Below are positions 6,516 through 28,412 of a stretch of DNA of 64,000 bases, piece by piece. How positions within the stretch are numbered: the first letter of the stretch is position 1; the number at the start of each line of letters is the position of its first letter. Origin of the DNA: Candidatus Omnitrophota bacterium (GTDB taxonomy: Bacteria; Omnitrophota; Gorgyraeia; 1-14-0-20-64-10); the NCBI GenBank assembly GCA_023818695.1, contig JAMWCF010000002.1:66-64065 (forward strand), in the 5' to 3' direction. The notes beneath the pieces are model-generated. The model was not told the origin of the DNA, made no database searches, and was given only the letters and a program-made list of their open reading frames with translations. The position numbers were made by a program, and so were the translations under genes.

Positions 6516-6580
6516 ACGACGTTCCGATCGTCCCGCCGTTTCCCTCAAAGACAAAACGTGAAAAACCGGAGGAAAGGTGC

Positions 6581-7541: not shown

Positions 7542-9008
7542 AATCCGGCCTTCGCCGCCGGCCTTCGATGTCCGGGAGGTGGGGAGGGTGGTTTCCGTCC
7601 GCGAATTCATCGCGAAGGTGCGGGGGCTGCCTTCCTGCCGGAATGGCCAGAAGGTCCAGTTCTCTTATGGAGACCCGGGGATGATCATGGGGTTCACGGA
7701 GGATGCCGTCTTGGTGCTTGTCTTCGGGAACAAGGCGCGCCTGCATGCGGGCTGCGAGGTCTATTCCCGCCAGGAGCCGTTCTGCGTGCCGGTGGGGGAG
7801 GAATTCGTGGGCAGGGTGGTCACCTCTTTGGGCGAGCCGGTCGACGGCCTGGGGTCCATCAAGGCGGCCGGCATGAACCCGATTTTCAGGGACGCGCCTG
7901 GGGTCATGGAGCGGGAGCCGGTGAACAACCCGTTGGAGACCGGCGTGCGGATCATCGATTCCTGCTTTCCGATCGCCAAGGGGCAGAGACAGCTGATCAT
8001 CGGCGACCAGATGACCGGCAAAACGACCATCGTGACCGACACGATCCTCAACCAGAAAGGCAAGAACGTCATCTGCATCTACTGCGCGGTCGGACAGAGC
8101 CAGTCCGCTTTCCAGAAGACCATGAAACTGTTGAGGGAGAAAGACGCCCTGGATTACACCACCGTCATCGCGGGGACCGCCTCTGCTCCACTGGCGGAGC
8201 AGTTTCTGGCGCCGTATTCGGCGGCCGCCATGGCCGAATATTTCGCCTCCCTGGGAAGGGACGTCTTCGTGGCCTTCGATGACTTGAGCAAGCACGCCTG
8301 GGCCTACCGCCAGCTTTCGCTGTTGCTGGAGAGACCGCCCGGGCGGGAGGCCTATCCGGGCGACATCTTCTACATCCATTCGCAGCTTCTCGAACGGGCC
8401 GGAAAGTTCATCAGGGAGCTGGGAGGCGGGACCATCACCTTTTTCCCGATCGTTGCCACCATCCAGGGGGATATCACCGGCTACATCCAGACCAACATCA
8501 TCTCCATCACCGACGGCCAGCTGTACTTGAATACCTCCCTTTTTCAGAAGGGGTTCAAGCCGGCCATCGATGTGGGACTCTCTGTCTCCCGCATCGGGAA
8601 CAAGGCGCTCTCGTCGGCGATGAAGGAGGTGATCGGGAAACTTCGCCTGGAGTACCTGCAGTTTCAGGAACTGCAGCGGATGACGACCCTCAAGGCGGAT
8701 CTCTCCTCCGAGGCGGAGACCCGTTTGAGAAGAGGGGAACTGGTGAACCTGTTTTTCACCCAGCCGAAATCCAAGCCGGCCGCCCTGGCCGACCAGGTCC
8801 TTTTCCTGTACGGGATCCGCAGCGGCCTGCTGGATGCCGTCCCGCAGATTTGGAGTCGGTTCAAGGAGGAGGCGGGCGGCTGGATGCGGCGGGTTCACCC
8901 GGAGATCATGCGGGAGATTCAGGAGAAGCAGGCACTGGCGCCCGAATTGAAGCAGAAGATGAATGAGGCCCTGCTGGAGTTTATCCAGGACACGGGGGTG
9001 CCGACGAA

Positions 9009-9012: not shown

Positions 9013-11719
<2,707 letters not shown>

Positions 11720-14604: not shown

Positions 14605-15580
14605 ACGGTTGTCATTCCTTGGCGCGCTTCTTTTCGCCGCCGTTCTTTCTACCAGCGGGCCCGCGGAGCCGGTTGAAGATCCCTCTGCCGCTGACCCGGC
14701 CGGCGAGATCTTCGGCACGCCGGTCCCTTTGTCCAACTACCAGTTTGCCAGGAGAGTGACCGCCATGTTCCCCAGGCCATGGGGGGCGAACAGCGCTTCG
14801 GCCGAGGAGCAGGAGCGTTTCACCTGGGAAAACCTGATTCTGCACTTTGAAGGCCACCGCCGCGGGATCACCGTCTCGGATGACGAACTGGAGCGGCAGA
14901 TCAACGAATTTTTGAAGGGAAACAAGCAAACCTTCACCCGCCGGGGCGATCCGGATGCCTACCAGAAATGGGTGAAGGAATACATCGGGGAAACGCCGGA
15001 TCTCTTCGAAAACCAAACCCGTTATCTGGTCCAGATCGCGAAGGTCCGGGACCTGATCTGGAACGATGTTCAAGTGACGGTGACAGAAGAGGAGATGCAG
15101 CAGGAATTCTTGAACGAAAAGCATCATGTCGGCGGCGAGATGGTCATCTTCGACTCCCGAGAGGAGGCGCAGGCCTTTTACGAAAAACACAAGAGCCGGC
15201 GTGCCTGGGAGAAGATGAAGGCCGCAGACAGGAAGAAGCCGGAGAAAGAGCGCCGGGTCCGGCCCGTCAGCACCATGACGCTGGAGGCCTACATCGAGCT
15301 GTGGGGGATCCCGAAGGAACAGATATACGCCTTTCACGCCGGCGAGATCGGTTCGGTCGCACCTCCTATGCCGTTTGGGTCCTCCCAGTGGTGCGTCTAC
15401 CGACTGCTGGACAAAAGGTCAGGGGATCTCGCCGATTTCCCGAAGGAGCGGGACCGGTATAGGGAGCAGATCGATTACAAGAATCGTCTGAAGGCCCAGC
15501 GCGCGAAGATCGACGAGCTTATCGCCTCGGCGAACCTGAAGGTTTTTGTGGACCGGGATTCTGCGGCAGGCGGATCTTGA
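14594..15580 (+). CDS. Secreted protein, weakly SurA/PpiD-N-terminal-chaperone-like; function uncertain
   Basis: Signal peptide MSVKRLSFLGALLFAAVLSTSGPA. The helical, charged body has segments reminiscent of SurA_N-type chaperones (ITVSDDELERQINEF; RYREQIDYKNRLKAQRAKIDELIASANLKVFVD). No PPIase motif is seen. The 3' end overlaps the convergent kinase gene by 62 nt. Confidence 0.4.
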   Translation: MSVKRLSFLGALLFAAVLSTSGPAEPVEDPSAADPAGEIFGTPVPLSNYQFARRVTAMFPRPWGANSASAEEQERFTWENLILHFEGHRRGITVSDDELERQINEFLKGNKQTFTRRGDPDAYQKWVKEYIGETPDLFENQTRYLVQIAKVRDLIWNDVQVTVTEEEMQQEFLNEKHHVGGEMVIFDSREEAQAFYEKHKSRRAWEKMKAADRKKPEKERRVRPVSTMTLEAYIELWGIPKEQIYAFHAGEIGSVAPPMPFGSSQWCVYRLLDKRSGDLADFPKERDRYREQIDYKNRLKAQRAKIDELIASANLKVFVDRDSAAGGS

Positions 15581-16784
15581 ACGAGGTTCCATTCCCGGCT
15601 TCGCTCTGAACTGCGATCGTCCCTCCGTGACCCTCCACCAGGGCCTTCGTGATGAAAAGCCCCAAGCCGAGCCCGCCGGTTTTCCTCTCGTGGATTCCTC
15701 CGATCGACCGGAAAGAGTCGAAAAGGGAGGGGAGCGCTTCATGGGGGATCCCCTTGCCGGTGTCGGTGATCCGGATTTCCAGTTCGTTGTCGTCCGCCGC
15801 CGCGCTGATGGAGACCTTTCCGCCTGAATCGGTGGCCTGCACGGCGTTTTCGATCAGGTAGACGAGGCCCTGCTGGAGGTGGCGCTTGTCGGCCTTCCAG
15901 GTCAATCCGTGGGGGATCTGCCCCTTTTCCAGCCGGACCCCCTTGCCGTCGGCCGCCGGCCGCTGGGCGATCTCGGTCTCGGACAACAGCTGATCAATGT
16001 CCACGGTTTCGAAGGAGAAGGCGAGTTTGCCGGTGATCACCTGCGTCGCCAGCAGGACTTTGTCCAGGAGATGGTGGAGCCGATCGACGTTCTGCGAGAC
16101 GGTCCCCAGGAATTCGGTCTGCTCCGCGTTGACCGGGCCCAGCGCCCCTTCCGAGAGGAGACTCACCCCTTCCCGGATCACCGTCAGAGGGATCCTCAAT
16201 TCATGGGAGATGATGGAGAGCAGCTCGTTCTTCGAGCGGTCCGCCTCCTGGAGGCGCTCCACGAGCAGGGCGTTGCGAAGCGCCGCCTGAAGCTGGTCCA
16301 CGACGGTTTGGATGGCGTGGATGTCCTGTTCGTTGAAGATGTTCTGCTGGGCGCTGAAGATCGACAGGATTCCCCCCGTCGTTCCCCCGATCGTCATCGG
16401 GAAGGAAAGATGGGAGCGGATGCTTCCGATCGGTCCGGAGCCGGTGGTGCCGAAATCGTCTTCCGTCATGACGGCAACTGAGTCTTCATCAAAATGTTTC
16501 TGCGTCTTTTCGGAGGCGGTCCGCAGTATCTGGCGGGAGATGTTGGTCATGTCGACCTGGGAGATCGGGGCGAACCGGGTCAGGAACAGCTTGCGGGGTT
16601 CCGCCAGGAAAATTCCGCACAGGGCGATGGGAAAGGTTTGCTTCAGATAGGAGGCGACGTGCCGGATCATCTGCCTGGTCTGGAGGGTGGCGCGCAGGAG
16701 GCGGCCGATCTCGTTGACCGTCTTGATCTCTTCCTTCAGCAGGGCGATCTGGGATTTCAGCTCCGCCGGCGTCACGTCAGGCAT
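15519..16784 (-). CDS. Cytoplasmic GAF-domain sensor histidine kinase
   Basis: 421 aa with no TM helix. A GAF-like N-terminal half is followed by H-box SHELRIPLTVIREG, an N-box (LIENAVQAT) and G-boxes (DTGKGIP, GGLGLGL). Confidence 0.85.
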   Translation of the reverse strand: MPDVTPAELKSQIALLKEEIKTVNEIGRLLRATLQTRQMIRHVASYLKQTFPIALCGIFLAEPRKLFLTRFAPISQVDMTNISRQILRTASEKTQKHFDEDSVAVMTEDDFGTTGSGPIGSIRSHLSFPMTIGGTTGGILSIFSAQQNIFNEQDIHAIQTVVDQLQAALRNALLVERLQEADRSKNELLSIISHELRIPLTVIREGVSLLSEGALGPVNAEQTEFLGTVSQNVDRLHHLLDKVLLATQVITGKLAFSFETVDIDQLLSETEIAQRPAADGKGVRLEKGQIPHGLTWKADKRHLQQGLVYLIENAVQATDSGGKVSISAAADDNELEIRITDTGKGIPHEALPSLFDSFRSIGGIHERKTGGLGLGLFITKALVEGHGGTIAVQSEAGNGTSFKIRLPQNPGPQKPSGSPRR

Positions 16785-16790
16785 GAGTGG

Positions 16791-16819
16791 ATTATATCAG
16801 CCGGTCAGCCGGTTGGCCA
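16791..16819 (-). promoter_or_regulatory. Candidate sigma70-like promoter abutting the kinase start codon (possible leaderless mRNA)
   Basis: On the minus strand there is TGGCCA (16819-16814), a 17-nt spacer and a perfect TATAAT (16796-16791). The -10 ends only 6 nt before the ATG (16784-16782), and no Shine-Dalgarno sequence fits in between. Confidence 0.3.
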
Positions 16820-16838
16820 GACGGCCGGCGGGCCGGGG

Positions 16839-17213
16839 TTCACAGACACGCTCGGCCGGCCCGGCGTGCCGGCCTCGCTCGGTTTTCTCGGTCGCTCTCC
16901 GGCCTTCCTGAACAGGCGCAAACGAAAATTCGACCCCGACGAATAAGAGGAAGCCGGAACCGTGCCCGCTGCCTCGAAAAACGGTCTGCTCACCCCGATC
17001 CCGCCGGCCGGTGTGCCGGATACCCGGCGGTGCTGGGGCCCCCGCGAGGGGTTGGCCCGCGCGCGGACGCTCATGAGGCCGGGGCGGGCACGGTGTCCCC
17101 GGCGGACTTTCCGTTGGGGGACGAGCCCGGCCGAATGCGCGAGTGAGGCTTGCCTCGCTGGGGTAGGCCGAACGGTCCGCGGCGGGCCAACCCGAAGCAG
17201 GGGTGGCACCGCT
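16839..17213. repeat. Copy 1 of a bipartite GC-rich intergenic element, split by a ~280-nt hairpin-rich insertion (possible structured RNA)
   Basis: Block 1 (16839-16870, ttcacagacacgctcggccggcccggcgtgcc) and block 2 (17170-17213, gaacggtccgcggcgggccaacccgaagcaggggtggcaccgct) match 26000-26031 and 26044-26087 at 29/32 and 41/44 positions. The intervening DNA is non-coding by composition, flanked by 8-nt direct repeats gcctcgct (16872-16879 and 17152-17159) and full of short GC stems. Confidence 0.6.
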
Positions 17214-17340
17214 GGATGCCGGCAACCAGCAACAAGCGACTAGCAACGGGCCGCCGTCTTAAGGTATTATGGTGACTGGAGATCAGAGAAGCCAGATGAG
17301 TCTACCGACAGCATACTGTCTCACCTGCGGAGGGTAGCGG

Positions 17341-20300
17341 GTGCTCCGTTTTTCGCAGGGGCGGAGAGTGGCTTTTCCCATTCTCCTGCTCTGTCTCTTT
17401 CTCACGGTTCTCTTCTGGCGGTACACCGCCTACAACACCGCCCGCGAAGCGAGGCGGAAATTCCAGGATGCCGTTGACGCCTCCCATCAGCTGATCAAAA
17501 GCCGGCTGGATCTCTGTCTGAATGCCCTCTACGGCTACCAGGGACTTTTCGCCGCCAGCCAGACCGTCACCAGGCAGGAGTTTGCGGCTTACTCGAAGGG
17601 GATCGACCTCCGGCAGAATTACCCCGGCCTTTCTTCCGTCAGCTTCGTGGAAAGGGTTCCCGCCGACAGGAAAGCGGAATTCCTTCAGAGGGTCCGGACC
17701 GACACCAGCGTCAATCCGGAGGGCTTCGGCCAGTTTTCCATCTACCCGGTCGGCTCGAGGGAAGAGTACTGGGTCGTTAATTACATCGAGCCGTTTCAGG
17801 GACACGAGGAGGCACACGGTTTCGATTTTTCGACCGAACCGGTCCGCAGAGCGGCGCTTGAAAAGGCCTGGCAGACAGGCAAACCGACCGCCACAGGCCG
17901 GATCTCCCTGCTGACCGGCACCGGCAACCGGGCCGGATTCCTGGTCTTCCTGCCGGTCTTCCCGCCGGAGAGCCCGGATCTGCCGCTTGAAGAGCGCCGC
18001 CAGCAGCTCAAAGGTTTCATCGTCGGAGAGTTCCACGTCTTAGAGCTGTTCCGCGAGCTTTCCAGCCGCCCCCACTTTGCGCCACGCGTCGATTTCGAGA
18101 TTTTCGACGGCCAGGGGCTGACCGACCAGCACCTCCTTTACGACCACCGGAAAGGGCAGAGGACCTGGGTGCCGGATTACCGCCCCCGTTTTTCCCAGCA
18201 GAGGACGCTGGCGGTGGCGGACCAGCAGTGGCGCCTCTCCTTCGCCGCGATGCCGGGGTTCGGCCTGACGGAGGCCAAGGAGGGGCTGCCGATCCTCGTC
18301 CTGTGCGCGGGGATCGTCTTCAGCTTCCTTCTTTTCGGGATCGTTTATTCGCTCTCCTCGTCCCGCATCCGTTCGATGAGTTTGGCCGAGCGAATGACGC
18401 GGGAGTTCAAGGAGAGTGAAGAGCGCTACCGCCTGATGGCGGAAAACTCCACGGACATGATCTCCCGGCACACCCCCACCGGCATCTATCTTTACGCCTC
18501 TCCCGCCTCCAAAAACCTGACCGCTTACGAACCCCAGGAGTTGACCGGCCACGCGATGCAGGAGTTCATTCACCCTCAGGACCTGCCGAAGGTGGAAACG
18601 GTGATGTCGGCGGCTTCGGGGGAGGACGTTTTCACGATCCGGTACAGGGTTCGCCGGAAGGATGGCGGGATGCTGTGGGTGGAGACGACCTGCCGGCGCG
18701 TTCGCGATCCCCAAACGAAGGCGGTCCGGGAGATCATCGCCGTCTCCAGGGATATCAGCGACCGACAGAAGACGGAAAAGGAGTTGGCCCGGTTGGCCGC
18801 CTTCCCGGAGGAAAATCCCAACCCGGTCATTGAGCTGGATGAGGAGGGGGCTATCTCCTACCTGAACCAGGCCGCTAAATCGCAGTTCCCAAAACTCCTG
18901 GATCAAGGGCTTCGCCACCCAATCCTGGAGGGGGTGGTGCTGGCGGCCGCGGAGCTGGAAAAGGGGGAGCGGCGGTCATTGGAGAGGGAGGTCCAGGTCG
19001 GCGAGTCGGTCTTTGAGGAGCTGATTTCCCTCGTTCCCGAAAGCCGCTCCATCCGCATCTACGCGCTGGATGTCACGCATCGAAAACGGTTCGAACGCCA
19101 GCGCCAGGAACAGGCGCGGCAGCTCGAAAAAACGAACAAGGAGCTGGTTCACCAGCAGAAGATCATGCAGCAGCTGCTGGCGGATCTGCAGTCGTCCAAG
19201 AGCCAGCTGGAGGCCTCCAACAAGAAGCTGGCAGAACTGCTCTCCGTGAAGGATGAGTTCGTGGCGAAGGTCAGTCACGAATTGAGGACCCCGTTGACGG
19301 CGATCAAAGAGGGGGTCCGCCTCCTGCTGGATTCCGCGCTGGGGCCTGTCAATGAGGAACAGGTCGATTTCCTCAAGACGATCGAGGAGAGTATCGATCG
19401 GCTCGCCGAGCTGATCAACAATCTCCTGGACCTCTCGAAGCTGCAGGCGGGCCGTCTGCGGCTGGTCCGGCAGAAGGTCAGCATCCAGGAGCTGATCGAA
19501 TCCACCATCCGCAGCTACAGGATGATCGCCGGCTCCCGGAGATTGACCGTCGAGTGCGGCGTGGTGCCGGCGGTCTTCGCCGATCCGAACCGGATCCTGC
19601 AGGTTCTGGGCAACCTTTTTTCAAACGCTATCAAGTTCACCGGCGAGCGCGGCAACATCGTTTTTTCCGTTGATGTCCGGGACGGGCAGGTGGCCGTCTC
19701 GGTCAAAGACGACGGTCCGGGCATTTCCGAAGAGGACCTCAAGAAGCTGTTTCAGAAGTTTTCGCAGGTCGGGGATGCAGCCAGCCAGACGCGCGGAACC
19801 GGTTTAGGGCTGGCGTTGTGCAAGGAGCTGGTGGAGCTGCACGGAGGATCCATCGGCGTCACATCCGAGCTCGGCACGGGGACCGTTTTTACCTTCACGC
19901 TGCCGATCTATACATCGGAAATGGCCCTGGAGAAATCTTTCGAGCAGCTTGTGGAATCCGCCGGCCGGGCCGAGAACGAGGTGGTCGCCTTGATCGTGGT
20001 CGACCTGGCGCAGTTCACCGGTCCCTTAGCCGCCGCCAAGGAATGGGACCCGGCGACCTGCGCTCAAAAAGTCGTCGACCTGGCTAGGTCCCATCTGAAA
20101 AGGAACGATGTCGTTATGGAGATCGGCAGCCACTCGGGCGTCGTGCTGCTCTCCGCCCAGTCGGCCGGGATCGCGTCGGTGGCCCAGCGGTTGAAGAAAC
20201 TTTTGGCGGAGTGGCTCATGTCGACCGCGTCGTTGAAGATGCTTCCGGACATCCGAATCGGGACGGCCGTCTACCCGGAGGACGGTTTGGACGTCATGAC

Positions 20301-20355
20301 GCTGCTGGCCAAGGCGAATTCCGCTCTTCAGGCGGCCAGCGGAAAGCACGCGTGA
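17341..20355 (+). CDS. CHASE-PAS hybrid-architecture sensor histidine kinase with a degenerate GGDEF-like C-terminal domain
   Basis: 1004 aa.
- N-terminal TM helix, then a periplasmic CHASE-like domain (YWVVNYIEPFQGHEEAHGFDFSTEPVRRAALEKAWQTGKPTATGRISLL), then a second TM helix.
- PAS domain (EERYRLMAENSTDMISRH...) and a coiled coil.
- H-box SHELRTPLTAIKEG and HATPase motifs (DDGPGIS, GTGLGLALCKELVELHGG).
- A C-terminal ~170 aa segment shaped like a GGDEF domain but with IGSHSGVVLL in place of GGDEF. Confidence 0.85.
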   Translation: MLRFSQGRRVAFPILLLCLFLTVLFWRYTAYNTAREARRKFQDAVDASHQLIKSRLDLCLNALYGYQGLFAASQTVTRQEFAAYSKGIDLRQNYPGLSSVSFVERVPADRKAEFLQRVRTDTSVNPEGFGQFSIYPVGSREEYWVVNYIEPFQGHEEAHGFDFSTEPVRRAALEKAWQTGKPTATGRISLLTGTGNRAGFLVFLPVFPPESPDLPLEERRQQLKGFIVGEFHVLELFRELSSRPHFAPRVDFEIFDGQGLTDQHLLYDHRKGQRTWVPDYRPRFSQQRTLAVADQQWRLSFAAMPGFGLTEAKEGLPILVLCAGIVFSFLLFGIVYSLSSSRIRSMSLAERMTREFKESEERYRLMAENSTDMISRHTPTGIYLYASPASKNLTAYEPQELTGHAMQEFIHPQDLPKVETVMSAASGEDVFTIRYRVRRKDGGMLWVETTCRRVRDPQTKAVREIIAVSRDISDRQKTEKELARLAAFPEENPNPVIELDEEGAISYLNQAAKSQFPKLLDQGLRHPILEGVVLAAAELEKGERRSLEREVQVGESVFEELISLVPESRSIRIYALDVTHRKRFERQRQEQARQLEKTNKELVHQQKIMQQLLADLQSSKSQLEASNKKLAELLSVKDEFVAKVSHELRTPLTAIKEGVRLLLDSALGPVNEEQVDFLKTIEESIDRLAELINNLLDLSKLQAGRLRLVRQKVSIQELIESTIRSYRMIAGSRRLTVECGVVPAVFADPNRILQVLGNLFSNAIKFTGERGNIVFSVDVRDGQVAVSVKDDGPGISEEDLKKLFQKFSQVGDAASQTRGTGLGLALCKELVELHGGSIGVTSELGTGTVFTFTLPIYTSEMALEKSFEQLVESAGRAENEVVALIVVDLAQFTGPLAAAKEWDPATCAQKVVDLARSHLKRNDVVMEIGSHSGVVLLSAQSAGIASVAQRLKKLLAEWLMSTASLKMLPDIRIGTAVYPEDGLDVMTLLAKANSALQAASGKHA

Positions 20356-20729
20356 AGATCCTTCTGGTCGACGATGAGCCGAGCATCGTCAAGATGGTGG
20401 GCAAGCGTCTTGAGATCGCCGGTTTTCAGGTGGTCGTCGCCATGGACGGGGAGGAGGCGCTTCAGAAGGCCAGTTCCGAAAAACCGGATCTGATTATTCT
20501 GGATTTCATGCTGCCCAAAAAAAACGGCTATGAGGTCTGTTCTCTTTTGAAGAAGGATCAGCGGTACCAGAAGATCCCCGTACTTCTTTTCACGGCGAAG
20601 GCGGCCGAGGAGGGGGAGAAGATCGGGGCCGGCTGCGGCGCCGACGGTTATATCCGCAAGCCGTTCCAGGCCCAGGAGTTTTTGGACACTATTCACGGCC
20701 TTATCGGGAAATCAAAGGGGAGTGTCTGA
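20352..20729 (+). CDS. Single-domain response regulator (REC only)
   Basis: The GTG at 20352 overlaps the kinase stop (GTGA). VKILLVDDEPSIVKMV...PDLIILDFMLPKKNGYEV...PVLLFTAKA...GADGYIRKPF carries the DD, D, T and K receiver residues. The ORF-track start at 20211 lies inside the kinase gene and is unlikely. Confidence 0.85.
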   Translation: MKILLVDDEPSIVKMVGKRLEIAGFQVVVAMDGEEALQKASSEKPDLIILDFMLPKKNGYEVCSLLKKDQRYQKIPVLLFTAKAAEEGEKIGAGCGADGYIRKPFQAQEFLDTIHGLIGKSKGSV

Positions 20730-20736
20730 AAAAACA

Positions 20737-21177
20737 ATGAAAATGAGAAAAAAGAAGGGGTTCACCCTCATCGAACTTATGCTGGTGATTGTGATCATCG
20801 GCGCGCTGGTCGCCATGGTCGTTCCCAAACTGGCGGGCCGCTCCGAACAGGCCCGCCGGACGGCGGCGGAAGCCGACATTAAGGGAAACTTGAGTTTGGC
20901 GCTGCGGCTTTATGAGGTGGACAACGGCCGCTATCCCACCACCGAACAGGGGCTTAAGGCGCTCCTTGAAAAGCCGGCCGCCCCACCGCTGCCGACCAAC
21001 TGGAAGGGCCCCTACATTGAACAAGAGCCGGTTGATCCGTGGGGAAAACCTTACAACTATCGGTATCCGGGGACCCATCCGCCCCGGGATTACGATCTTT
21101 TTTCCTATGGTCCCGATGGGGTGCAAAGCGATGACGACGTCACGAACTGGGGGCAGGCGACAAGCGAAGGTAAATAA
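20737..21177 (+). CDS. gspG: Type II secretion major pseudopilin (GspG family)
   Basis: The prepilin leader and cleavage site are MKMRKKKG/FTLIELMLVIVIIGAL. GspG-type motifs include EADIKGNLSLALRLYEVDNGRYPTTEQGLKAL, the C-terminal DPWGKPYNYRYPG and the tail SYGPDGVQSDDDVTNW. Confidence 0.85.
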   Translation: MKMRKKKGFTLIELMLVIVIIGALVAMVVPKLAGRSEQARRTAAEADIKGNLSLALRLYEVDNGRYPTTEQGLKALLEKPAAPPLPTNWKGPYIEQEPVDPWGKPYNYRYPGTHPPRDYDLFSYGPDGVQSDDDVTNWGQATSEGK

Positions 21178-21575
21178 TGACCAGGTGCCAGAGGGGGTTG
21201 ACGCTGATCGAGGTGCTGGGGGCGATCGTGCTGATCGCCATCGCGGGGGTGGGATCGCTCCAGGCCCTGGCGGCCATTTCGCGGGCCATCCAGACGGCCG
21301 AAAGCCGGGTGATCGCCTATCAGTTCGCCAGCTCCAAGTTCGGGGATCTGCAGGTCACATTTTTTGAAAAACGCTCTTTCGACATCTCGGAAGAGGGCTC
21401 TTTCCGGCAGGGTGGAATCGAGTATCGCTGGTTTGCCCGGGCCGAAGAGGTTGAAGAGGGTACTTCGTTGGGGCAGCTTTCAGTGGGTGTCGACTGGGGC
21501 GCGGGCAGGGGAGCCGGAAATTACGGGATCACGATGTTTCTCTTGCAGCGGCCGGAGGAGGCGGCGGGGGAGTGA
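21177..21575 (+). CDS. Minor pseudopilin (GspH/GspI-like)
   Basis: The N-terminal prepilin-type motif is QRG/LTLIEVLGAIVLIAIAG. It is 132 aa, and its start overlaps the gspG stop. Confidence 0.65.
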   Translation: MTRCQRGLTLIEVLGAIVLIAIAGVGSLQALAAISRAIQTAESRVIAYQFASSKFGDLQVTFFEKRSFDISEEGSFRQGGIEYRWFARAEEVEEGTSLGQLSVGVDWGAGRGAGNYGITMFLLQRPEEAAGE

Positions 21576-22168
21576 AGCCAAGAACCGGTTTTACGCTGGT
21601 GGAGCTGCTGGTGTCCGTGACGCTGGTCGCCATGATCACCGGCGTCACCGTTTCGATCGTCATGGGGGGATTCAGGGTTTGGGACCGGTGGAGGGAATAT
21701 TCCGGGCGGCATCTGCAGGTCCGTCTGGCGCTGGAGGAGTTCAGCCGAGATCTTCGCAACATGCACCGGTTCCGACCCATCCCCTTGGACGGGCGGTACG
21801 ATCAGATTTCTTTCCCCGCTCTTCTGGAGTTTGACACAAGGGAGGGGAAAAGGGTCCTCGACATAGGCAGGGTCGCTTATTTTTTCAACGACGCCGCGGG
21901 GACGTTATCTCGATCCGAACATTCCTACAGAGGTTTAAGCGGCTCCTCCATTCGCGATGGGGAAAAGATCATTGTGGAAGGGATCGACAGGGTCCGTTTC
22001 TTTTTTTATAAGCCGGAGGCGATGGGCGGGACCGGCTGGACCGATGCCTGGGATGAAAAGGAAGAGAATTTTTCGCCGCAAGCCATCAAGCTGGAGATTG
22101 GGTACACCCCTTATGACAAAAAAGAGATGGTGCAGCAGTCCGTCGTGGTCATTATTCCCACGTCGTGA
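21572..22168 (+). CDS. Minor pseudopilin (GspJ-like)
   Basis: The prepilin-type N-terminus is MKPRTG/FTLVELLVSVTLVAMITG. It is 198 aa, with a GTGA-type overlap with the upstream gene. Confidence 0.65.
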   Translation: MKPRTGFTLVELLVSVTLVAMITGVTVSIVMGGFRVWDRWREYSGRHLQVRLALEEFSRDLRNMHRFRPIPLDGRYDQISFPALLEFDTREGKRVLDIGRVAYFFNDAAGTLSRSEHSYRGLSGSSIRDGEKIIVEGIDRVRFFFYKPEAMGGTGWTDAWDEKEENFSPQAIKLEIGYTPYDKKEMVQQSVVVIIPTS

Positions 22169-23102
22169 GAGCGGTTCAGTCTTCATTCTTGCTGTTTGGG
22201 CGGTCACGCTGTTGAGTTTCATGGCGGTGGCGATCGGCGTGAACGTGGAGGCCATGCTCGGGTTTGTCAGGCGTCTGGAGAAGCAATCCCGGGTTTATTA
22301 CCGGTTAGCCGGGGGGCCGCATTGGGTGCTGATGGTTTTGTCCCAGGATGATACGCCCGGATACGACAGCGCCGAAGAGACGATGTTTCTCCTGAAAGAA
22401 TGGGCTGTGCTGCGGGACCCCGATGTGAAGGTGGAGACGGAGCAGGAGTTTTTGCCGGATGAAGACGGGAAGATCAACCTGAACACGGCGCCGGAGGATG
22501 TCTTGAAGCGTCTCTTCCACCGGGCCGGCGTGGAAGATCCCGCCATGATAACCGATTCGATCATTGACTGGAGAGACGAAGACGACGACGCCCGTCCCTA
22601 TGGGGCTGAAGATTTTTACTATCAGACGCTGCCCGAACCGTACGAATGCAAAGACGAAGCGTTCGAGTCGGTGGAGGAGCTTCTGCTGGTCAGGGGGATG
22701 AGTTTCGATCTCTGGGAAAGGGTGAAGAGTTCCATCACTGTCTATGGTTCGGGAAGCGTGAATATGAACACGGCCAGCGAGGAGACCCTGGCTGTGATGG
22801 GCCTGTCGGAGCCGGCCGTCTCGGCCATTGTCGTTTATAAAGCAGGGGAGGATGACCGCCTGGGGACGCCGGACGACAGAGTTTTCACCTCCACCCAGCA
22901 GATACTCATGGAAATGGACCAAAAGGTTCCGATCGAAGATCAAAATCGGCTGGCCCAGTTTGTCCAGGACGGTTTTCTGGGTGTGACATCGCAAGCGTAC
23001 ATTTTTTCGGCCCGCGGGGAGTTGACGTCCGAGAAAGACAGGAGGTCCCTGTGGGCTGTCGTGGACCGCGCAGGCCGGATCGCGGCCTGGCGGGAGGGAT
23101 AA
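22113..23102 (+). CDS. GspK-like minor pseudopilin
   Basis: The hydrophobic N-terminus RRESGSVFILAVWAVTLLSFMAVAIG is GspK-like (RGSALLxVLW). Two helix-hairpin-helix-like segments are present (INLNTAPEDVLKRLF; VNMNTASEETLAVMGLSEPAVSAIVVYK). I chose the ATG at 22113; the ORF-track start at 21957 would overlap the previous gene by 212 nt. Confidence 0.6.
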   Translation: MTKKRWCSSPSWSLFPRRESGSVFILAVWAVTLLSFMAVAIGVNVEAMLGFVRRLEKQSRVYYRLAGGPHWVLMVLSQDDTPGYDSAEETMFLLKEWAVLRDPDVKVETEQEFLPDEDGKINLNTAPEDVLKRLFHRAGVEDPAMITDSIIDWRDEDDDARPYGAEDFYYQTLPEPYECKDEAFESVEELLLVRGMSFDLWERVKSSITVYGSGSVNMNTASEETLAVMGLSEPAVSAIVVYKAGEDDRLGTPDDRVFTSTQQILMEMDQKVPIEDQNRLAQFVQDGFLGVTSQAYIFSARGELTSEKDRRSLWAVVDRAGRIAAWREG

Positions 23103-23111
23103 AGGCGGCTG

Positions 23112-24662
23112 ATGGAGGATCAGGGAAAAGAGAAAAAGGGGGGCGGTCAAACAGCGGCGGACCGGAAACCGGTTCCGGCCAAACCGGTCCAGCGTTCCTT
23201 GAGGGTTTTGCCGGGCTGCAGGAGCGTCGTTTCCCTGGACAGCCAGTGGTTTAAGCTGGTGTACACCCTGCCGGGGCCGCAGGGACGGGTCATCCACCGC
23301 TTTTTCGCCGAATCGATCACCGGCTTGAGCGACGCCCAGATCGCGAAGCTTCTCGCGGAGAAATTGGGCCGGTCGGCCGGCTTCGATCCCGGCCGAGTCA
23401 CGATCGCCAACCCATCCCAGTTCACCACCATCCGGCTCACCGACCTGCCCTCGGTCGATCCCGCCGAGATTCGGCAGATTGTCGACCTGCAAGCCGAACG
23501 GTACACCCCCTACGCCAAAGAGGAGATACTCGCCGGCTTCAAGATCGTCGGACAGGGGAAAACCGGCTATTCCCATGTCCTGATCGCGATTTCCCACCGG
23601 GACGTCGTCCAGCGGACCGTTTCGGTGCTGGACAGCATCGGATGGATGGCGGTTCATGTTGGGGCCGACCTGGAGGGATTGGTCAACTGGTTCCGCCTGG
23701 TCAAGGCAGGCAAGGGGGCCGGCTTTACGGAAAAGACGGTCGTTCTTGTCGATGTGGATTGGAACAATTCAACGGTGGTGGTTCTTCAGGGAGGGCAGCC
23801 GGTTTTCCACCGCTCCATCGAATGCGGAGCGGCCCACCTGGCCGCCGACGCCGTGGCAGGGACCGCCACCTTGACGGGAGAGCTCCAGCGCTCTCTGGAG
23901 GCCCTGGAGGGGGAGGAAGGGGTTTTGCCCCCTTCCGAAATCGTCTTGAGCGGCCTGGCCGAGCGCCGGCCGGCCCTCCAGACCGATCTCCAGCGGGATC
24001 TCAAACTGCCGGTGACCATCGTCAGCACCTTTTCCAAGCCGATTCCGATCCATGGCAGCGCCGCTTCCCAGCCAAACACGGCCCGCGTTTCCTTCTCCGG
24101 GCTGATCGGTTTGGCTCTGGGGTCGACCGACGTTGATTTGACGCCGCAGCCGGTCAAACTGCGTCTGGCGTTCGAAAGCCGATCGCGGGCTCTGGTCATG
24201 CTGGGCGGTCAGCTGGTTGTGCTCCTGCTGCTGCTGACCTGCTGGGGGCTGGAAAAGATGATCAAGGTGGAGCGCTACGCCGCGAGGATCGAACGCCAGG
24301 AGCTCGCTATTCGGGCCAATGCCCGCGGTCTGGCCAAGGCCCTGGACCAGATCGGCGTCGTTCAAGACCGTCTCACGATGAGGGGCAAGCTGCTCGAGGT
24401 CACCTCCGCGGTGACGAAGGTTCTGCCGCCGGAAATCCGCCTGGAGTCGATCGCGTTCACAGCGAACGAAAGCGTCATTCTGAAAGGGGTCTCCTCGGAG
24501 CTTCCTAAGGTTTACGAATTGACGAACGGTTTGGGCAAGCTGCCTGATTTTTCAAGCGTGACGGCCAGGCGGACCGCCAAACGCAGGGAAGGAGAGCAGA
24601 GCGTGACCGATTTCGAGATCGAGTGCCTGCTGAACGTTCCTGGGAAGGGGGCGTCGCCGTGA
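23112..24662 (+). CDS. PilM-like actin-fold domain fused to a TM helix and PilN-like periplasmic segment (GspL-like architecture)
   Basis: 516 aa. The cytoplasmic PilM-like half includes VVLVDVDWNNSTVVVLQGGQPVFHRSIECGAAHL. It is followed by a TM helix (ALVMLGGQLVVLLLLLTCWGL), a coiled segment and a small C-terminal alpha/beta domain. Confidence 0.6.
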   Translation: MEDQGKEKKGGGQTAADRKPVPAKPVQRSLRVLPGCRSVVSLDSQWFKLVYTLPGPQGRVIHRFFAESITGLSDAQIAKLLAEKLGRSAGFDPGRVTIANPSQFTTIRLTDLPSVDPAEIRQIVDLQAERYTPYAKEEILAGFKIVGQGKTGYSHVLIAISHRDVVQRTVSVLDSIGWMAVHVGADLEGLVNWFRLVKAGKGAGFTEKTVVLVDVDWNNSTVVVLQGGQPVFHRSIECGAAHLAADAVAGTATLTGELQRSLEALEGEEGVLPPSEIVLSGLAERRPALQTDLQRDLKLPVTIVSTFSKPIPIHGSAASQPNTARVSFSGLIGLALGSTDVDLTPQPVKLRLAFESRSRALVMLGGQLVVLLLLLTCWGLEKMIKVERYAARIERQELAIRANARGLAKALDQIGVVQDRLTMRGKLLEVTSAVTKVLPPEIRLESIAFTANESVILKGVSSELPKVYELTNGLGKLPDFSSVTARRTAKRREGEQSVTDFEIECLLNVPGKGASP

Positions 24663-25213
24663 AAAAGCTGAAATTTTCCATCCCGAAGATCAAATGGGGA
24701 CGCCGGGAAAAAATCCTGGGAACGGCGTGCGCCGCGATGATCTCCCTTGTTTTTATGGACCGCTTGGCAATCACCCCCTGGTTGCAGCGGATGGAATACC
24801 TCCGGGAGAACCTGGATTCCCTGGAGCAGACCCTGCTGACGGAGCAGCGGCTTTTGGCCAGGGAAAAGATGGTGCGCGACCATCTGGAACGGTTCAAAAA
24901 GTATCTCGTTCCGGTTTCAGACCCGGGCCTTCAGATGGCCACCTTCCTGAAGGAGATACAGAAGCTGGCGGATGAGCATCAGATCGCTTCGCTGGAGATC
25001 AAGCCGCAGGAGGGGGAGGTCAACGATCTGTTCCAGATTTACATCTTTGATCTGCAGGGAGAGGGAGATTTCCGGCAGTGGATTCGCTTCGTCCATGCGA
25101 TCGAATCCTCCCCGTCCCTCTTCCAGGTGGAACGGGCCAGGGTGGGCGTGAAAGAAAAACAGGAGGGGGTCCTAGACATCACCCTGCGCCTGACAGCCAT
25201 CTCCTTCAGGTAG
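24659..25213 (+). CDS. GspM/PilO-like bitopic assembly protein
   Basis: The GTG at 24659 overlaps the upstream stop (GTGA). It has one TM helix (ILGTACAAMISLVFM), a coiled coil and a small C-terminal domain. The call rests on size, topology and position only. Confidence 0.45.
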   Translation: MKKLKFSIPKIKWGRREKILGTACAAMISLVFMDRLAITPWLQRMEYLRENLDSLEQTLLTEQRLLAREKMVRDHLERFKKYLVPVSDPGLQMATFLKEIQKLADEHQIASLEIKPQEGEVNDLFQIYIFDLQGEGDFRQWIRFVHAIESSPSLFQVERARVGVKEKQEGVLDITLRLTAISFR

Positions 25214-25222
25214 CTCAAGAGT

Positions 25223-25876
25223 TTAAAGCCAGCCGCGGCGGTTTAAATCCGCCTCGATGTCGTGGAAGGTGGCGTAGGCAACCGCCGGAATTTTTTGCGT
25301 TGCGCACCAGGCCGCCAGTTCATCCTTCGCGAAGGTCAACCCCGCCACTTCGGCGGCGCAACGGTCGGTGACGCCGTTACCCACAAAGACGGTGAAATAT
25401 CCCTGTTCTTTCCACGCTTTGACGGCGTCCGCTTTGCAGTGGCCGCAGTTGTCGCAGGCGGCCGACGGGTGGGGGTATTCCACACGCCACGACCCATTGT
25501 CGCGGACCAGCCGGTTTGCCAGGTACGGAACAGGCCACAGGCCGTGCCGCTGCATGACCGTTTCGACGCAGAGGTCGAATCCACCGCTCAAGAGGACGAC
25601 CGGAATGCCGCTGTTTCTCATCCGGCTGAAGAACGGGGGGAACCCGGCGTCTAGGGCCACCCGTTCGCTCAACAGGTTTTTCAGTTGATGAAGATCCGCC
25701 CGGACGGAGCTCATCTCCTGCCGGAGACCTTCCCGGATCGACAAGGTTCCCGCGACGACCTGATCCTGGACGGATCGCCAGGAGGCGGAACCGTACCTGT
25801 CCAGGATCTCCACGAGGGTATCCTGCTTCGTCACGGTGCCGTCAAAATCGCATGCGATCAAAAGCGGCTGCTTCAT
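25223..25876 (-). CDS. HAD-IB phosphatase, MtnX-like (2-hydroxy-3-keto-5-methylthiopentenyl-1-phosphate phosphatase family)
   Basis: 217 aa. Motif I is IACDFDGTVT, then TLSIREG, LLSGGFD, a Cys cluster (CDNCGHCK) and motif IV (VGNGVTDRCAA...FAKDEL). From memory, this architecture parallels Bacillus MtnX. AAGGAG lies 6 nt upstream of the ATG. Confidence 0.7.
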   Translation of the reverse strand: MKQPLLIACDFDGTVTKQDTLVEILDRYGSASWRSVQDQVVAGTLSIREGLRQEMSSVRADLHQLKNLLSERVALDAGFPPFFSRMRNSGIPVVLLSGGFDLCVETVMQRHGLWPVPYLANRLVRDNGSWRVEYPHPSAACDNCGHCKADAVKAWKEQGYFTVFVGNGVTDRCAAEVAGLTFAKDELAAWCATQKIPAVAYATFHDIEADLNRRGWL

Positions 25877-25902
25877 GTTCTCCTTGCATTCACAAGGTGG
25901 TT

Positions 25903-25932
25903 ATTATCCCGGCCGACACAATCTCTTGTCAA
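25903..25932 (-). promoter_or_regulatory. Candidate sigma70-like promoter for the HAD phosphatase gene
   Basis: On the minus strand there is TTGACA (25932-25927), an 18-nt spacer and GATAAT (25908-25903). This sits ~27 nt upstream of the ATG with an AAGGAG RBS in between. Confidence 0.35.
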
Positions 25933-25999
25933 TCCTTTCCTGCCCATGCGAGGGGGTCCATATGCAGTACGAGTCCCGCCATTCGTCCGGCGGCCGGAG

Positions 26000-26087
26000 T
26001 TCGCAGATACGCTCGGCTGGCCCGGCGTGCCCGCTCTCTCGAAGAACGGTCCGCGGCGGGACACCCCGAAGCAGGGGTGGCACCGTT
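26000..26087. repeat. Copy 2 (compact form) of the bipartite GC-rich intergenic element
   Basis: ttcgcagatacgctcggctggcccggcgtgcc (26000-26031) and gaacggtccgcggcgggacaccccgaagcaggggtggcaccgtt (26044-26087) are separated by only 12 nt. The element contains the hairpin CACCCC-GAAGCA-GGGGTG. It lies between two divergent candidate promoters. Confidence 0.6.
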
Positions 26088-26100
26088 GCGGTTGCGGAAA

Positions 26101-26129
26101 TTGACCCGCTACCCTGGGGATGGTAGACT
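26101..26129 (+). promoter_or_regulatory. Candidate sigma70-like promoter for the sugar ABC transporter operon
   Basis: TTGACC (26101-26106), a 17-nt spacer and TAGACT (26124-26129). AAGGAG at 26153-26158 precedes the TTG start at 26166. Confidence 0.35.
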
Positions 26130-26165: not shown

Positions 26166-28412
26166 TTGATACGACTTCGAAACAGCTTCCGAAAACTCTT
26201 TATCCTGTCTGTTTTATCCGCTTTTCTTATCTTCTTTTCGCCCCTGCTCTATCCTTCGCCTGCTTTTTCAGAGGTCACCATCGATTTCTGGGAGTTTGTC
26301 GTCGGCGAAGAGCTGATGCGCTCTCTCCTGGACAAGTTCGAGCGGCAGAACCCGGGGATCAAGGTCCGATTCCAGCAGCTTTCATGGGACTACGGATTGA
26401 ACAAACTCATCACCGCCATCGCGGCGGGCAACGCCCCCGATCTCGTGGAGCTTGGGACCGACTGGGTGCCCCAGTTCTCCTCCTCGGGGATTTTACGGGA
26501 CATCACAGAGAAGGTGGAGCCGATCCGGGATCAATATCTCCTGTGGGATCCGGTCACCTACAAGGGGCGGGTTTATGGCATTCCTTGGCTGGCCGGCACG
26601 CGGATCCTTTTCTACAACCGAGCTCTTTTCGCCAAAGCGGGTCTGAATCCGGACAGGCCCCCCGCTACCTGGGAGGAGCTTCTGCACGCCGTCAAGGCGG
26701 TGGATGCCTTGGGGCCGGAGATCTACGGGTTCGGCATCCATGTGGCGGAGCCATATGCTCCCTGGCAGCAATTCCTGCCTTTTGCCTGGGGCAACGGGGC
26801 CGATGTGCTGGATAAGGAGTGGACCCGTCCGCTTCTGGACGAACCGCCGATGGTGGAGGCGCTGAACTTCTACGCTTCCCTAAAGCCGTACTCCCTGGTG
26901 GATCGCCAGTCCCAGGTCAACCAACTTTTCGCCGAGGGCAAGGTCGGCGTTCAGATCTCCGGTTCCTGGAACTTCGCTCTGATCCCCCGCATGAACCCGA
27001 CCCTCAATTTCGGCATCGGCCTGCTTCCAAAGCCGGCCGCCAACAAAGGGACCCCGGCCTCTTTTGCCGGCGGCGAGATGTTGGTGATTCTCAAGCAGTC
27101 CCGTCATCCGGAGGAGGCCTTAAAGCTGGCCCTCTTCCTGATCCAGGAGGAGCAGGCGATGGCGATCGTCGAGGCCCAGCGCAATATCGTTCCAACGACC
27201 AAATCGGCGATCCAGCATCCCTATTACCAGACCCATCCCGAACAACGGGTCATGTTTGAACAGGCCCGTTTCGCCGTTGCCCCCCCGGCCCATCCGAACT
27301 GGGTGAAGATGGAGGAAAAGATTACCCGGATGATCGAAGAGGTGATTCTGAACAACCGGCCCCCCGAGAAGGTCTTAAAGGAAACGGCGGCGCAGATCAC
27401 TCCGCTTCTGTCCCCAGAGGAAATACGAGGAACGGTCAGCGACATCGTTGTTTTCGGCGGGGTCCTGCTCTGCTTCGCCGGGGCTGGGGTCGTCTCCTGC
27501 GTCCTGCGGCGCCGCAAGGGCCCCGCGAAGCGGGTGAAGCACAGCTTTTACAGTCTTTCCACCAGCGCCATATTCCTCGCCCCATGGCTCATCACCTTCC
27601 TCTGCTTCAGTCTGGTCCCCCTTCTGCACTCATTGGTCTTGAGTTTCTGCAGGTACAACCTCTTGAGTTCCGACATAACGTTCGTCGGATTGAGGAATTT
27701 TTGGGATGTCATTCGGGACAAAGAATTTCGGGACGCGCTGGGACACACGATCTTTTTCGCGGTCGGGACGATTCCGTTCACGATGATGCTGGCGCTGTTC
27801 GCCGCGGTGCTGATCAACACGAAGATCCCGTTCAAGCGGCTTTACCAGGCCGGGCTGTTTTTGCCGGTGGCGACCTCCGTGATCGTCATCTCGATGATCT
27901 TCACCTACCTGTACGCCCCGGACGGCCTCATCAACAAGGCGCTGGAGATGCTGCACCTGCCGGTCCCCTCGCCCAGCTGGCTGCTCAACACGCAGCTGGC
28001 GCTTCCTGCCATCATGATCATGAACATCTGGTCCAGCTTCGGCTATTACATGGTCCTGTTCCTGGCTGGCCTGCAGACGATTCCGGTGGAGCTTTACGAG
28101 GCCGCCTCCATCGACGGGGCCAACGAATGGGAAAAGTTCAGGCACATCACGCTGCCGCAGCTGCGCCCCATCATCCTGCTGGCGACCGTCATCAACACGA
28201 TCCACACCTTCCAGGTTTTTCCAGAGATCTTCGCCATGACCCAGGGCGGGCCCTTGGGGGCCACCACTACCGTTGTCTGGTATCTTTACCAGGCCGGTTT
28301 TTCCAGGTTTGAAATGGGCAAGGCGGCGGCGGTCGGGTACATGCTCTTCCTGATCACCATGTGCTTTTCCTGGGTCCAGATGCGGATGTTCAAGTATGAG
28401 GAGCCGACCTGA
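26166..28412 (+). CDS. Fusion of an ABC sugar-binding protein (family-1 SBP) with a MalF/UgpA-type permease
   Basis: 748 aa.
- Signal peptide, then an SBP-like half (ITIDFWEFVVGEE...KFERQNPGIKVRFQQLSWDYGLNKLITAIAAGNAPDLVELGTDWVPQF).
- A TM linker (IVVFGGVLLCFAGAGVVSCVL).
- A six-helix permease half with the EAA loop EAASIDGANEWEKFRHITLPQLRP. Confidence 0.8.
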   Translation: MIRLRNSFRKLFILSVLSAFLIFFSPLLYPSPAFSEVTIDFWEFVVGEELMRSLLDKFERQNPGIKVRFQQLSWDYGLNKLITAIAAGNAPDLVELGTDWVPQFSSSGILRDITEKVEPIRDQYLLWDPVTYKGRVYGIPWLAGTRILFYNRALFAKAGLNPDRPPATWEELLHAVKAVDALGPEIYGFGIHVAEPYAPWQQFLPFAWGNGADVLDKEWTRPLLDEPPMVEALNFYASLKPYSLVDRQSQVNQLFAEGKVGVQISGSWNFALIPRMNPTLNFGIGLLPKPAANKGTPASFAGGEMLVILKQSRHPEEALKLALFLIQEEQAMAIVEAQRNIVPTTKSAIQHPYYQTHPEQRVMFEQARFAVAPPAHPNWVKMEEKITRMIEEVILNNRPPEKVLKETAAQITPLLSPEEIRGTVSDIVVFGGVLLCFAGAGVVSCVLRRRKGPAKRVKHSFYSLSTSAIFLAPWLITFLCFSLVPLLHSLVLSFCRYNLLSSDITFVGLRNFWDVIRDKEFRDALGHTIFFAVGTIPFTMMLALFAAVLINTKIPFKRLYQAGLFLPVATSVIVISMIFTYLYAPDGLINKALEMLHLPVPSPSWLLNTQLALPAIMIMNIWSSFGYYMVLFLAGLQTIPVELYEAASIDGANEWEKFRHITLPQLRPIILLATVINTIHTFQVFPEIFAMTQGGPLGATTTVVWYLYQAGFSRFEMGKAAAVGYMLFLITMCFSWVQMRMFKYEEPT

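Follow-up and report, generated by a model that had tools for sequence, protein, structure and literature searches.

A structured, multi-copy intergenic repeat in Omnitrophota-like bacteria, probably related in character to REPINs, BIMEs, and MITEs

Two intergenic spacers carry copies of one repeat

The window analyzed here is a 64,000-nucleotide (nt) stretch of contig JAMWCF010000002.1 (assembly GCA_023818695.1) from a Candidatus Omnitrophota bacterium. Two of its spacers, one near 17 kb between divergent GAF and CHASE kinase genes and one near 26 kb between divergent genes for a HAD phosphatase and a transporter, are alike because both carry copies of one repeat, which is the subject of this report (Table 1). 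Omnitrophota are uncultured, mostly ultra-small bacteria, and the dynamics of their genomes are almost unknown.

A preliminary description of the window had proposed a bipartite element made of two blocks, B1 and B2, set at a variable distance. A repeat search and blastn of the window align B1 at 16831-16870 with 25992-26031 (36/40 identical; 29/32 when restricted to 16839-16870) and B2 at 17170-17211 with 26044-26085 (40/42; 41/44 over 17170-17213). Strand and order are alike in both copies, and the gap between the blocks is 12 nt (26032-26043) in the 26-kb copy and 299 nt (16871-17169) in the 17-kb copy. The order, strand, identities (29/32 and 41/44), and spacing (12 and ~300 nt) given earlier are thus reproduced, and Pfam confirms that both copies lie between divergent genes. 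The conserved hairpin noted in B2, CACCCC-GAAGCA-GGGGTG, is present at 26062-26079, with one mismatch in copy 1 (CAACCC), and corresponds to a family-wide 3'-terminal hairpin (CCCC-GAGCA-GGGG). Conservation is also above chance: the core patterns of B1 and B2, allowing three or fewer mismatches, match only these two places in 64 kb, and dinucleotide shuffles predict just 0.02 and 0.01 matches, respectively. A low-stringency self-comparison by blastn added a third collinear match between the copies that had been overlooked (16961-16986 with 26026-26051, 23/26) and placed the 5' half of B2, inverted, at 17049-17068 (19/20). No additional partial copies turned up in the window, either by blastn or in a covariance-model scan (R2, see below) with filters off. 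The right end of copy 2 (26106-26115) and the region where the CHASE kinase gene starts (17331-17340) share a perfect 10-nt inverted match, CCGCTACCCT, inside a 32-nt inverted repeat (72%), probably by chance (E 0.15).

Folding changes how these blocks are to be read. The 17-kb spacer folds far better than its shuffles on both strands (z = -4.3 and -6.3), and two long imperfect hairpins (16822-17010 and 17014-17224) make up its minimum free energy (MFE) structure. The entire 3' strand of the second hairpin is B2, while one strand of the first is the left part of B1. The real conserved core lies in the 300-nt "spacer" of copy 1.

A family of covarying units in metagenomes

How far does the family extend beyond the window? 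We fetched ten loci with relatives of the window's transporter (58-77% identity) from Omnitrophota metagenome-assembled genomes (MAGs), and the lead to the core was a single borderline blastn match (E 0.31) of both copies against them. In one of these loci, L005, part of the spacer is homologous to window 17084-17165, the center of the second copy-1 hairpin, and a second copy lies 4 kb away. A covariance model built from three sequences—copy 1 and two from L005—is referred to as R1 and a later full model as R2; R1 also picks up weak inverted cores in the first copy-1 hairpin and in L005. The junction CCGTGCCCGC proved to be the core box GCGGGCACGG in reverse complement. A degenerate pattern that constrained only the first conserved box and the adjoining helix, H1, returned 55 metagenome loci, about 40 of which have the full core, including the unconstrained helix H3 and 3' box, at 50-88 bits. 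Some 40 units in 0.32 Mb of metagenome loci make this a multi-copy, noncoding sequence in the 100-400 nt size range of miniature inverted-repeat transposable elements (MITEs). B1 and B2 are homologous pieces of this widespread, structured, multi-copy intergenic repeat.

A complete unit is an imperfect palindrome of 190-220 nt with a long closing stem and a conserved apical core. The sequence of the closing stem varies between copies while its complementarity is kept. In order, a unit comprises a 5' arm (often with a CCCC-GCGA-GGGG hairpin), the box GCGGGCACGG, H1 (GUCCsCC...GGsGGAC), GAGCGAGG with a linker, (C/G)AGCGA, H3 (a 7-8-bp stem of nearly any sequence, closed by the loop WCGCUGG), the 3' box GAGCGGUGC, and a 3' arm with the CCCC-GAGCA-GGGG hairpin. 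The invariant core is made up of GCGGGCACGG, GGACGAGCGAGG, WCGCUGG, and GAGCGGUGC. Model R1 had used a different pairing, H2 (GAGYGMGG/CCKCGC), which we replaced; the helix that really covaries is H3, around the loop WCGCUGG. Extra hairpin modules with a recurring GAGTCGGTGAG motif occur in the linker of L035 (7627-7690) and in the 3' arms of L016 and L019; because these modules sit at differing positions in the unit, the family itself is mosaic.

H1, H3, and the closing stem all covary, which is the compensatory change in hairpins known from repetitive extragenic palindromic (REP) sequences and their doublets, REPINs. For H3, 19-30 distinct stems are 96% paired, versus 56% with partners shuffled. 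In a 28-sequence alignment the covariation score is 0.481 versus 0.117; 0 of 500 shuffles reach it, and slid controls stay at or below 0.145. The two arms of one unit form duplexes of -58.5 kcal/mol on average, compared with -39.0 kcal/mol when paired with the arms of other units, and a unit's own partner arm ranked first in 16 of 27 units. The preliminary description had regarded the blocks as a chance duplicated fragment should other copies and covariation be lacking. The opposite is found, and the many copies and clear covariation indicate a dispersed repeat family, not a locus-specific regulator.

These results also bear on the idea that an intergenic fragment was duplicated locally, by chance or just once, a reading in keeping with the presence of the blocks at only two loci in 64 kb. 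The chance expectation of 0.01-0.02 speaks against it, the homologous units in L005 and in about 40 metagenome loci refute it, and assembly breaks at the block edges (see below) indicate more copies; we give it next to no credence.

A head-to-head pair of units at 17 kb

The 17-kb spacer is a head-to-head pair: unit A reads on the minus strand, unit B on the plus. Unit A is recognized weakly by the covariance models (20.8 bits with R1; 21.3 bits, E 0.007, with R2) and aligns end to end with the metagenome unit L038; its helices appear in the MFE fold as 16823-16847 paired with 16984-17009. Unit B scores far higher (78.7 bits with R1; 68.4 bits, E 1e-12, with R2) and is ~80% identical to the metagenome unit L026 over ~190 nt. 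Its 5' arm pairs with B2 over the full length of B2 in the MFE fold, and the duplex of its flanking arms reaches -82.3 kcal/mol, versus a mean of -52.9 kcal/mol for cross-unit pairings. The two blocks of copy 1 therefore belong to two oppositely oriented units with the conserved core lying in what had been taken for a spacer, and the idea of a bipartite element with a variable spacer has to be given up. None of the fetched relatives' loci has an orthologous GAF-CHASE spacer.

A deleted unit within a promoter at 26 kb

The 26-kb copy is a single unit of ~170 nt from which a deletion between GGCACG repeats removed H1 and the linker. Its R2 score is just 8.9 bits, in keeping with the loss of the core, and it folds unremarkably by itself (z = -0.3 and -1.7 on the two strands).

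Is this copy ancestral to the spacer or a later arrival? The divergent HAD-transporter pair is kept in most of the ten relatives' loci. The window's transporter is a 748-amino-acid protein that joins a periplasmic solute-binding domain (SBP_bac_1) to an ABC permease domain (BPD_transp_1), and most of its relatives in these loci are near full length. Beyond a 100% identical NCBI protein from a Candidatus Omnitrophica MAG, the next relative of the HAD protein is only 69% identical, so there are no close strains for comparison. In six relatives (L006, L007, L008, L012, L013, and L014) the HAD/transporter spacer measures just 22-127 nt. Four of these (L007, L008, L012, and L013) have a back-to-back promoter in which CTTGTCAA is the -35 on both strands, followed 17-18 nt later by GGTAGACT in L007, L008, and L013; this -10 region of the transporter is kept in relatives. 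L006 has CTTGTAAA in place of CTTGTCAA, and L014 has neither. The window has TTGTCAA at 25926-25932 and TAGACT at 26124-26129. Excising 25943-26116 (174 nt: the 170-nt element and one CCTG) leaves TTGTCA, 18 nt, and TAGACT—the spacing seen in L013 and L008, with 12/18 spacer positions identical. Since excision restores the promoter spacing of the relatives, copy 2 is an insertion into a compact promoter, where it now separates the ancestral transporter -35 from its -10. An empty orthologous site in relatives is thus seen, for copy 2 only.

The insertion appears to have rewired the promoter. The palindromic TTGTCAA, which contributes the -35 of the HAD promoter, is also the ancestral transporter -35 on the other strand (25926-25931), and the transporter gene would now be read from a hybrid promoter whose TTGACC -35 is borne by the element. 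L005 has TTGAGA, 17 nt, and TAGACT at the equivalent end of its element. The copies had been described as lying upstream of the candidate promoters; this does not hold at 26 kb, where the transporter -35 is inside inserted DNA, and in the window as a whole units lie upstream of promoters or inside them, not in leaders. In L005, which is among the two closest relatives, the spacer is 538 nt long and bears a separate insertion at this very point, following TTTCCAG; the coincidence could reflect an old shared event or a hot spot.

Table 1. Position of the repeat units, their parts, and the adjoining genes and promoters in the window
Feature	Position	Strand	Basis
GAF-HisKA-HATPase kinase gene	15519-16784	-	Pfam
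Candidate GAF kinase promoter, TGGCCA-17-TATAAT, directly past the 3' end of unit A	16791-16819	-	Consensus scan only
Unit A, complete, pointing at the GAF kinase gene	16822-17010	-	Covariance model, alignment, MFE fold
Unit A, 5' arm	17010-16984	-	
Unit A, box GCGGGCACGG	16969-16960	-	
Unit A, H1 (expanded)	16958-16898	-	
Unit A, linker GAGCGA	Between H1 and H3	-	
Unit A, H3, GGCCGGC / ACGCCGG / GCCGGCC	16874-16854	-	
Unit A, 3' box and arm, GAGCGTGTCTGTGAACCCCGG...	16853-16822	-	
B1, reverse complement of H3, 3' box, and arm of unit A	16831-16870	+	Parsed against family consensus
Unit B, intact, pointing at the CHASE kinase gene	17014-17224	+	Covariance model, fold, alignment
Unit B, 5' arm with hairpin CCCC-GCGA-GGGG	17014-17068	+	
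Unit B, box	17084-17093	+	
Unit B, H1	17095-17122	+	
Unit B, linker	17123-17146	+	
Unit B, H3 (loop TCGCTGG at 17155-17161)	17147-17169	+	
Unit B, 3' box and arm	17170-17224	+	
B2, 3' box GAACGGTCC (consensus GAGCGGUGC) and 3' closing-stem strand of unit B, with small terminal hairpin	17170-17214	+	Pairs with 17024-17068
CHASE-PAS-HisKA-HATPase kinase gene	17341-20355	+	Pfam
HAD phosphatase gene	25223-25876	-	Pfam
Putative HAD promoter, -35 TTGACA (25932-25927), -10 GATAAT (25908-25903)	25903-25932	-	Consensus scan
CCTG, possible 4-bp target-site duplication	25939-25942; second copy 26113-26116		One reconstruction against relatives' empty sites
Copy 2, single internally deleted unit, ~170 nt	25943-26112	-	Matches collinear with copy 1; aligns with unit A and L038
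Copy 2, 3' box and arm, complement of B1	26016-25985	-	
Copy 2, fused box/H3 hairpin, joined at shared GGCACG	26035-26017	-	
Copy 2, pre-box junction GACCGTTCTTCGAGAGA (GACCGTTTTTCGAGGCA in unit A)		-	
Copy 2, 5' arm, complement of B2	26088-26044	-	
Putative present transporter promoter, -35 TTGACC (26101-26106, in element), 17-nt spacer, -10 TAGACT (26124-26129, ancestral)	26101-26129	+	Consensus scan
SBP_bac_1 and permease fusion transporter gene	26166-28412	+	Pfam

Copies, orientation, and genomic context

Several observations speak to the spread of the family. At least two units per locus are found in L036, L046, L062, L030, and L005, and the SDBU01 assembly has four contigs with one unit each. 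L043 and L046, different loci of one assembly, are near-identical over the whole unit, which points to recent spread. Units lie in intergenic spacers either one at a time or in pairs. Head-to-head pairs (minus, then plus), the inverted doublets familiar from REPINs, occur in six places: window copy 1, L005 (twice), L056, L026, and L040. The second such pair in L005 (13562-13943) lies between permease and amidohydrolase genes; the same gene pair overlaps in the window, leaving no spacer, which makes another contrast of presence and absence.

The units occur in hosts of 38-72% GC and form GC-rich islands (~0.6) in hosts of 0.38-0.45 GC. Relatives of one low-GC neighbor protein are named Omnitrophica, Ratteibacteria, or unclassified bacteria. 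The neighboring genes are ordinary and unrelated to one another (type II secretion system [T2SS] E/F, FabD/FabG, OppB/OppC, L11, and a tmRNA gene), and no protein family recurs beside the units among the neighbors examined. Where the adjoining genes are codirectional, the unit takes up the entire spacer and reads antisense to them in 8/8 cases, some loci being one site in different samples. Searches of plasmids, phages, and IMG/VR gave no match to the element, and the six-frame translation of copy 2, used as a protein query for spurious open reading frames (ORFs) on other copies, scored on 0/8000 candidates.

Is there more than this in the source genome itself? Exact patterns derived from B2 matched nothing in the genome or metagenome contig collections; the source species is thus missing from both, and the B2 arm is lineage-specific. 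Logan contigs that carry the flanking genes all stop within the blocks. One of them breaks off at 26073 and its successor begins at 26056, while two others, from two samples, end at 16854. With Logan presumably assembled at k = 31, these breaks imply a collapsed 42-nt unitig at 26044-26085, which is B2, and an exact repeat starting at 16825. We infer that more copies exist in the source community or genome. The Logan contig that ends in B1 starts at ~10779, inside a coding region; the repeat does not explain this break, which may reflect paralogous T2SS ATPase sequence or strain variation.

Smaller relatives of the unit were also seen. A 24-nt H1-like palindrome recurs alone in L005 and L007. 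In L007, a short nested palindrome, AAAAACGTCATTGCGA-GTCCGCCAA..TTGGCGGAC-GAAGCAATC..GTTTTT, is repeated at least five times in short intergenic gaps (6509-6554, 7549-7594, 8412-8455, 9146-9189, and 9925-9970). Its center is the family H1 hairpin, and it resembles a miniature of the element, akin to a REP or a bidirectional terminator. In L025 (1370-1761 and 1875-1968), a unit lies 114 nt downstream of a tmRNA gene, on the opposite strand, and three tRNA matches (one below the Rfam threshold) are found just upstream.

Could the two copies be a DNA-level regulatory module through which a shared transcription factor or nucleoid protein coregulates both divergent gene pairs? Their location in divergent promoter regions agrees with this, a conserved core could be a protein-binding site, and B2 holds TGGCAC, the -24 element of sigma-54 promoters. 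However, a TGGCAC-N5-TTGC promoter requires exactly 10 nt from GG to GC, and this distance measures 11 nt in copy 1 and either 7 or 13 nt in copy 2, so we rejected a sigma-54 promoter. The family is also found inside unrelated operons of other genomes, the orthologous HAD-transporter spacer is free of the element in most relatives, and blocks of 40-45 nt at 90-95% identity far exceed the length of an operator site. A regulatory module is therefore very unlikely. Nor do the units behave as a riboswitch or leader, for which a sense position in the 5' untranslated region of related genes would be expected. The unrelated contexts of the family and the spacers without it in most relatives argue equally against the riboswitch-like leader or shared module for the four genes that had been suggested at first.

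Comparison with known elements

No known family accounts for the unit. At the gathering thresholds of Rfam release 15 (4227 models) there were 0 matches in the window and 0 in the ten related loci; units in nine metagenome loci had no match either, and a search of both copy regions at E <= 10 returned chance-level matches only. The best subthreshold match, DUF3268 RNA, was found in copy 2 only and was rejected at 20.9 bits against a threshold of 65.3. The view that the element is structured and unclassified is therefore upheld. A template/variable repeat pair of a diversity-generating retroelement was likewise rejected, because the seven differences (G/A, A/G, C/T, C/T, C/A, A/C, and C/T) are not confined to template adenines; no reverse transcriptase is encoded among the genes neighboring the blocks. 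We found no description of such an element in the literature.

Which known repeats does it resemble? REP sequences, REPINs, and bacterial interspersed mosaic elements (BIMEs) are known from E. coli and Pseudomonas and are mobilized by Y1 transposases termed RAYTs (REP-associated tyrosine transposases). Like them, the element is intergenic, often in operons, hairpin-forming, and noncoding, with inverted doublets, mosaics of modules in both orientations, and compensatory change between paralogous copies. Unlike them, its unit is ~200 nt long (190-220 nt) with a branched, sequence-conserved core, compared with the 20-40-nt palindrome of a REP; it lacks a GTAG-type 5' motif; no RAYT gene was seen in the flanking DNA examined; and its doublets pair whole units head to head, with 100-170 nt from box to box, not two short REPs. 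Hairpin MITEs, such as Correia/NEMIS of Neisseria, ERIC/IRU of enterobacteria, and RUP, share with it an imperfect palindrome of 100-250 nt, full-length and internally deleted variants, insertion in promoter regions, ends that give promoter hexamers, and absence at the orthologous sites of relatives. They differ in that no parent insertion sequence is known for the element and no transposase lies near its units. BOX elements of Streptococcus pneumoniae (boxA-boxB(n)-boxC) also have conserved end modules, a variable middle, and a stable predicted fold, and such a variable middle is what had first been seen here as two blocks 12 or 300 nt apart. There is no sequence relationship, however, and BOX modules are tandem and co-oriented, whereas the middle of this element is made up of the conserved core plus another unit in inverted orientation. 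With structured RNA families in Rfam it shares covarying helices together with conserved unpaired nucleotides.

A dispersed DNA repeat or a functional RNA?

We consider it probable, if by no means settled, that the units are a new REPIN/BIME/MITE-like structured repeat dispersed between genes of Omnitrophota-like bacteria. Such units would spread or persist as DNA, in the manner of REPINs, BIMEs, and MITEs, with a protein supplied in trans probably recognizing the conserved core, and any effects on neighboring genes would be incidental to insertion. In the 26-kb spacer, the element would have split an ancestral back-to-back promoter, one end of it now supplying the -35 TTGACC, 17 nt before the old -10.

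A number of observations weigh against a repeat of this kind. No transposase, RAYT, or other mobilizing candidate was found in the ~0.5 Mb of flanking DNA examined. MITEs conserve terminal inverted repeats and a defined target duplication while their interior drifts, whereas here the arms vary and the interior is conserved, with ~40 unpaired core nucleotides near-invariant across hosts of 38-72% GC. A conserved core with varying arms is more typical of a functional RNA or a tightly constrained protein-binding site. The long unit, its invariant branched core, and its freely varying arms fit neither REPINs/BIMEs nor hairpin MITEs cleanly. The model strand folds 10.7 kcal/mol better than its complement, in 25/27 whole units, an asymmetry that hints at constraint at the RNA level, though G-rich loops could cause it. 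The putative CCTG duplication is a single case, at copy 2, and makes weak target-site evidence; repeats of 7-8 bp are possible near L043 and L062, where unit boundaries are uncertain. The insertion point shared by the window and L005 could mark one old event followed by decay, not recent mobility, and for copy number in the source genome the sole evidence is the assembly breaks.

A rival reading is a new multi-copy structured RNA—for example a ribozyme, an RNA bound by RNase III or another protein, or a guide-type RNA—in which the core would be functional, the closing stem would present it, and B1 and B2 would be the 3' parts of two RNAs. In its favor are the unpaired core segments, near-invariant as all three helices covary, and the folding advantage of the model strand in 25/27 units. 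Length varies by extra hairpins, as in many RNA families (H1 of unit A and the modules in L035, L016, and L019), and the units are GC-rich islands in low-GC hosts. The H3 loop CGCUG is also complementary to the flanking CAGCG/AGCG boxes, so that a pseudoknot or switch is conceivable. Yet consensus scans of the window show no evident promoter or terminator around the units, and operon spacers leave no room for them; given the 8/8 antisense placement in such spacers, the strand transcribed would be the complement of the better-folding one. G.U (5) and A.C (4) pairs are equally rare in H3, which fits palindromes kept at the DNA level and shows no enrichment of G.U; copy 2 has been retained without its core; and no Rfam family matches. 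We hold such an RNA to be distinctly less probable than a REPIN/BIME/MITE-like repeat. The same tentative standing applies to a broader form of the idea, in which the unit would represent a functional structured nucleic acid of a new class, shared by Omnitrophota and their relatives, with a core that is active or recognized: either a multi-copy RNA (self-cleaving, bound by RNase III or another protein, or the guide of an unrecognized mobile system) or a single-stranded DNA hairpin that is the substrate of an undescribed recombinase.

The 2023 survey of Omnitrophota annotated the RNAs of the phylum against Rfam only (PMC10066038). A phylum-wide structured repeat that breaks short-read assemblies accounts for contig ends in MAGs and offers a marker for strain typing. 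The 26-kb site would be a concrete case of promoter rewiring, in which a repeat split a compact back-to-back promoter and now supplies the replacement -35. An invariant core with covarying stems over hosts of 38-72% GC is a good candidate for a new functional RNA or for the recognition site of an unknown mobilizing enzyme, and the covariance models R1 and R2 make both ideas directly testable on genomes and metatranscriptomes.

Other repeats in the window

Two further sets of repeated sequence lie elsewhere in the window. Three copies of a 118-nt segment, 65-74% identical, are found at 2595-3666 within an 1814-amino-acid ORF (27-5471), and suggest a giant protein with repeat domains. Stretches ~12.5 kb apart, 47489-47788 with 60087-60386 and 48108-48197 with 60604-60693, are 71-73% identical and probably belong to paralogous genes.

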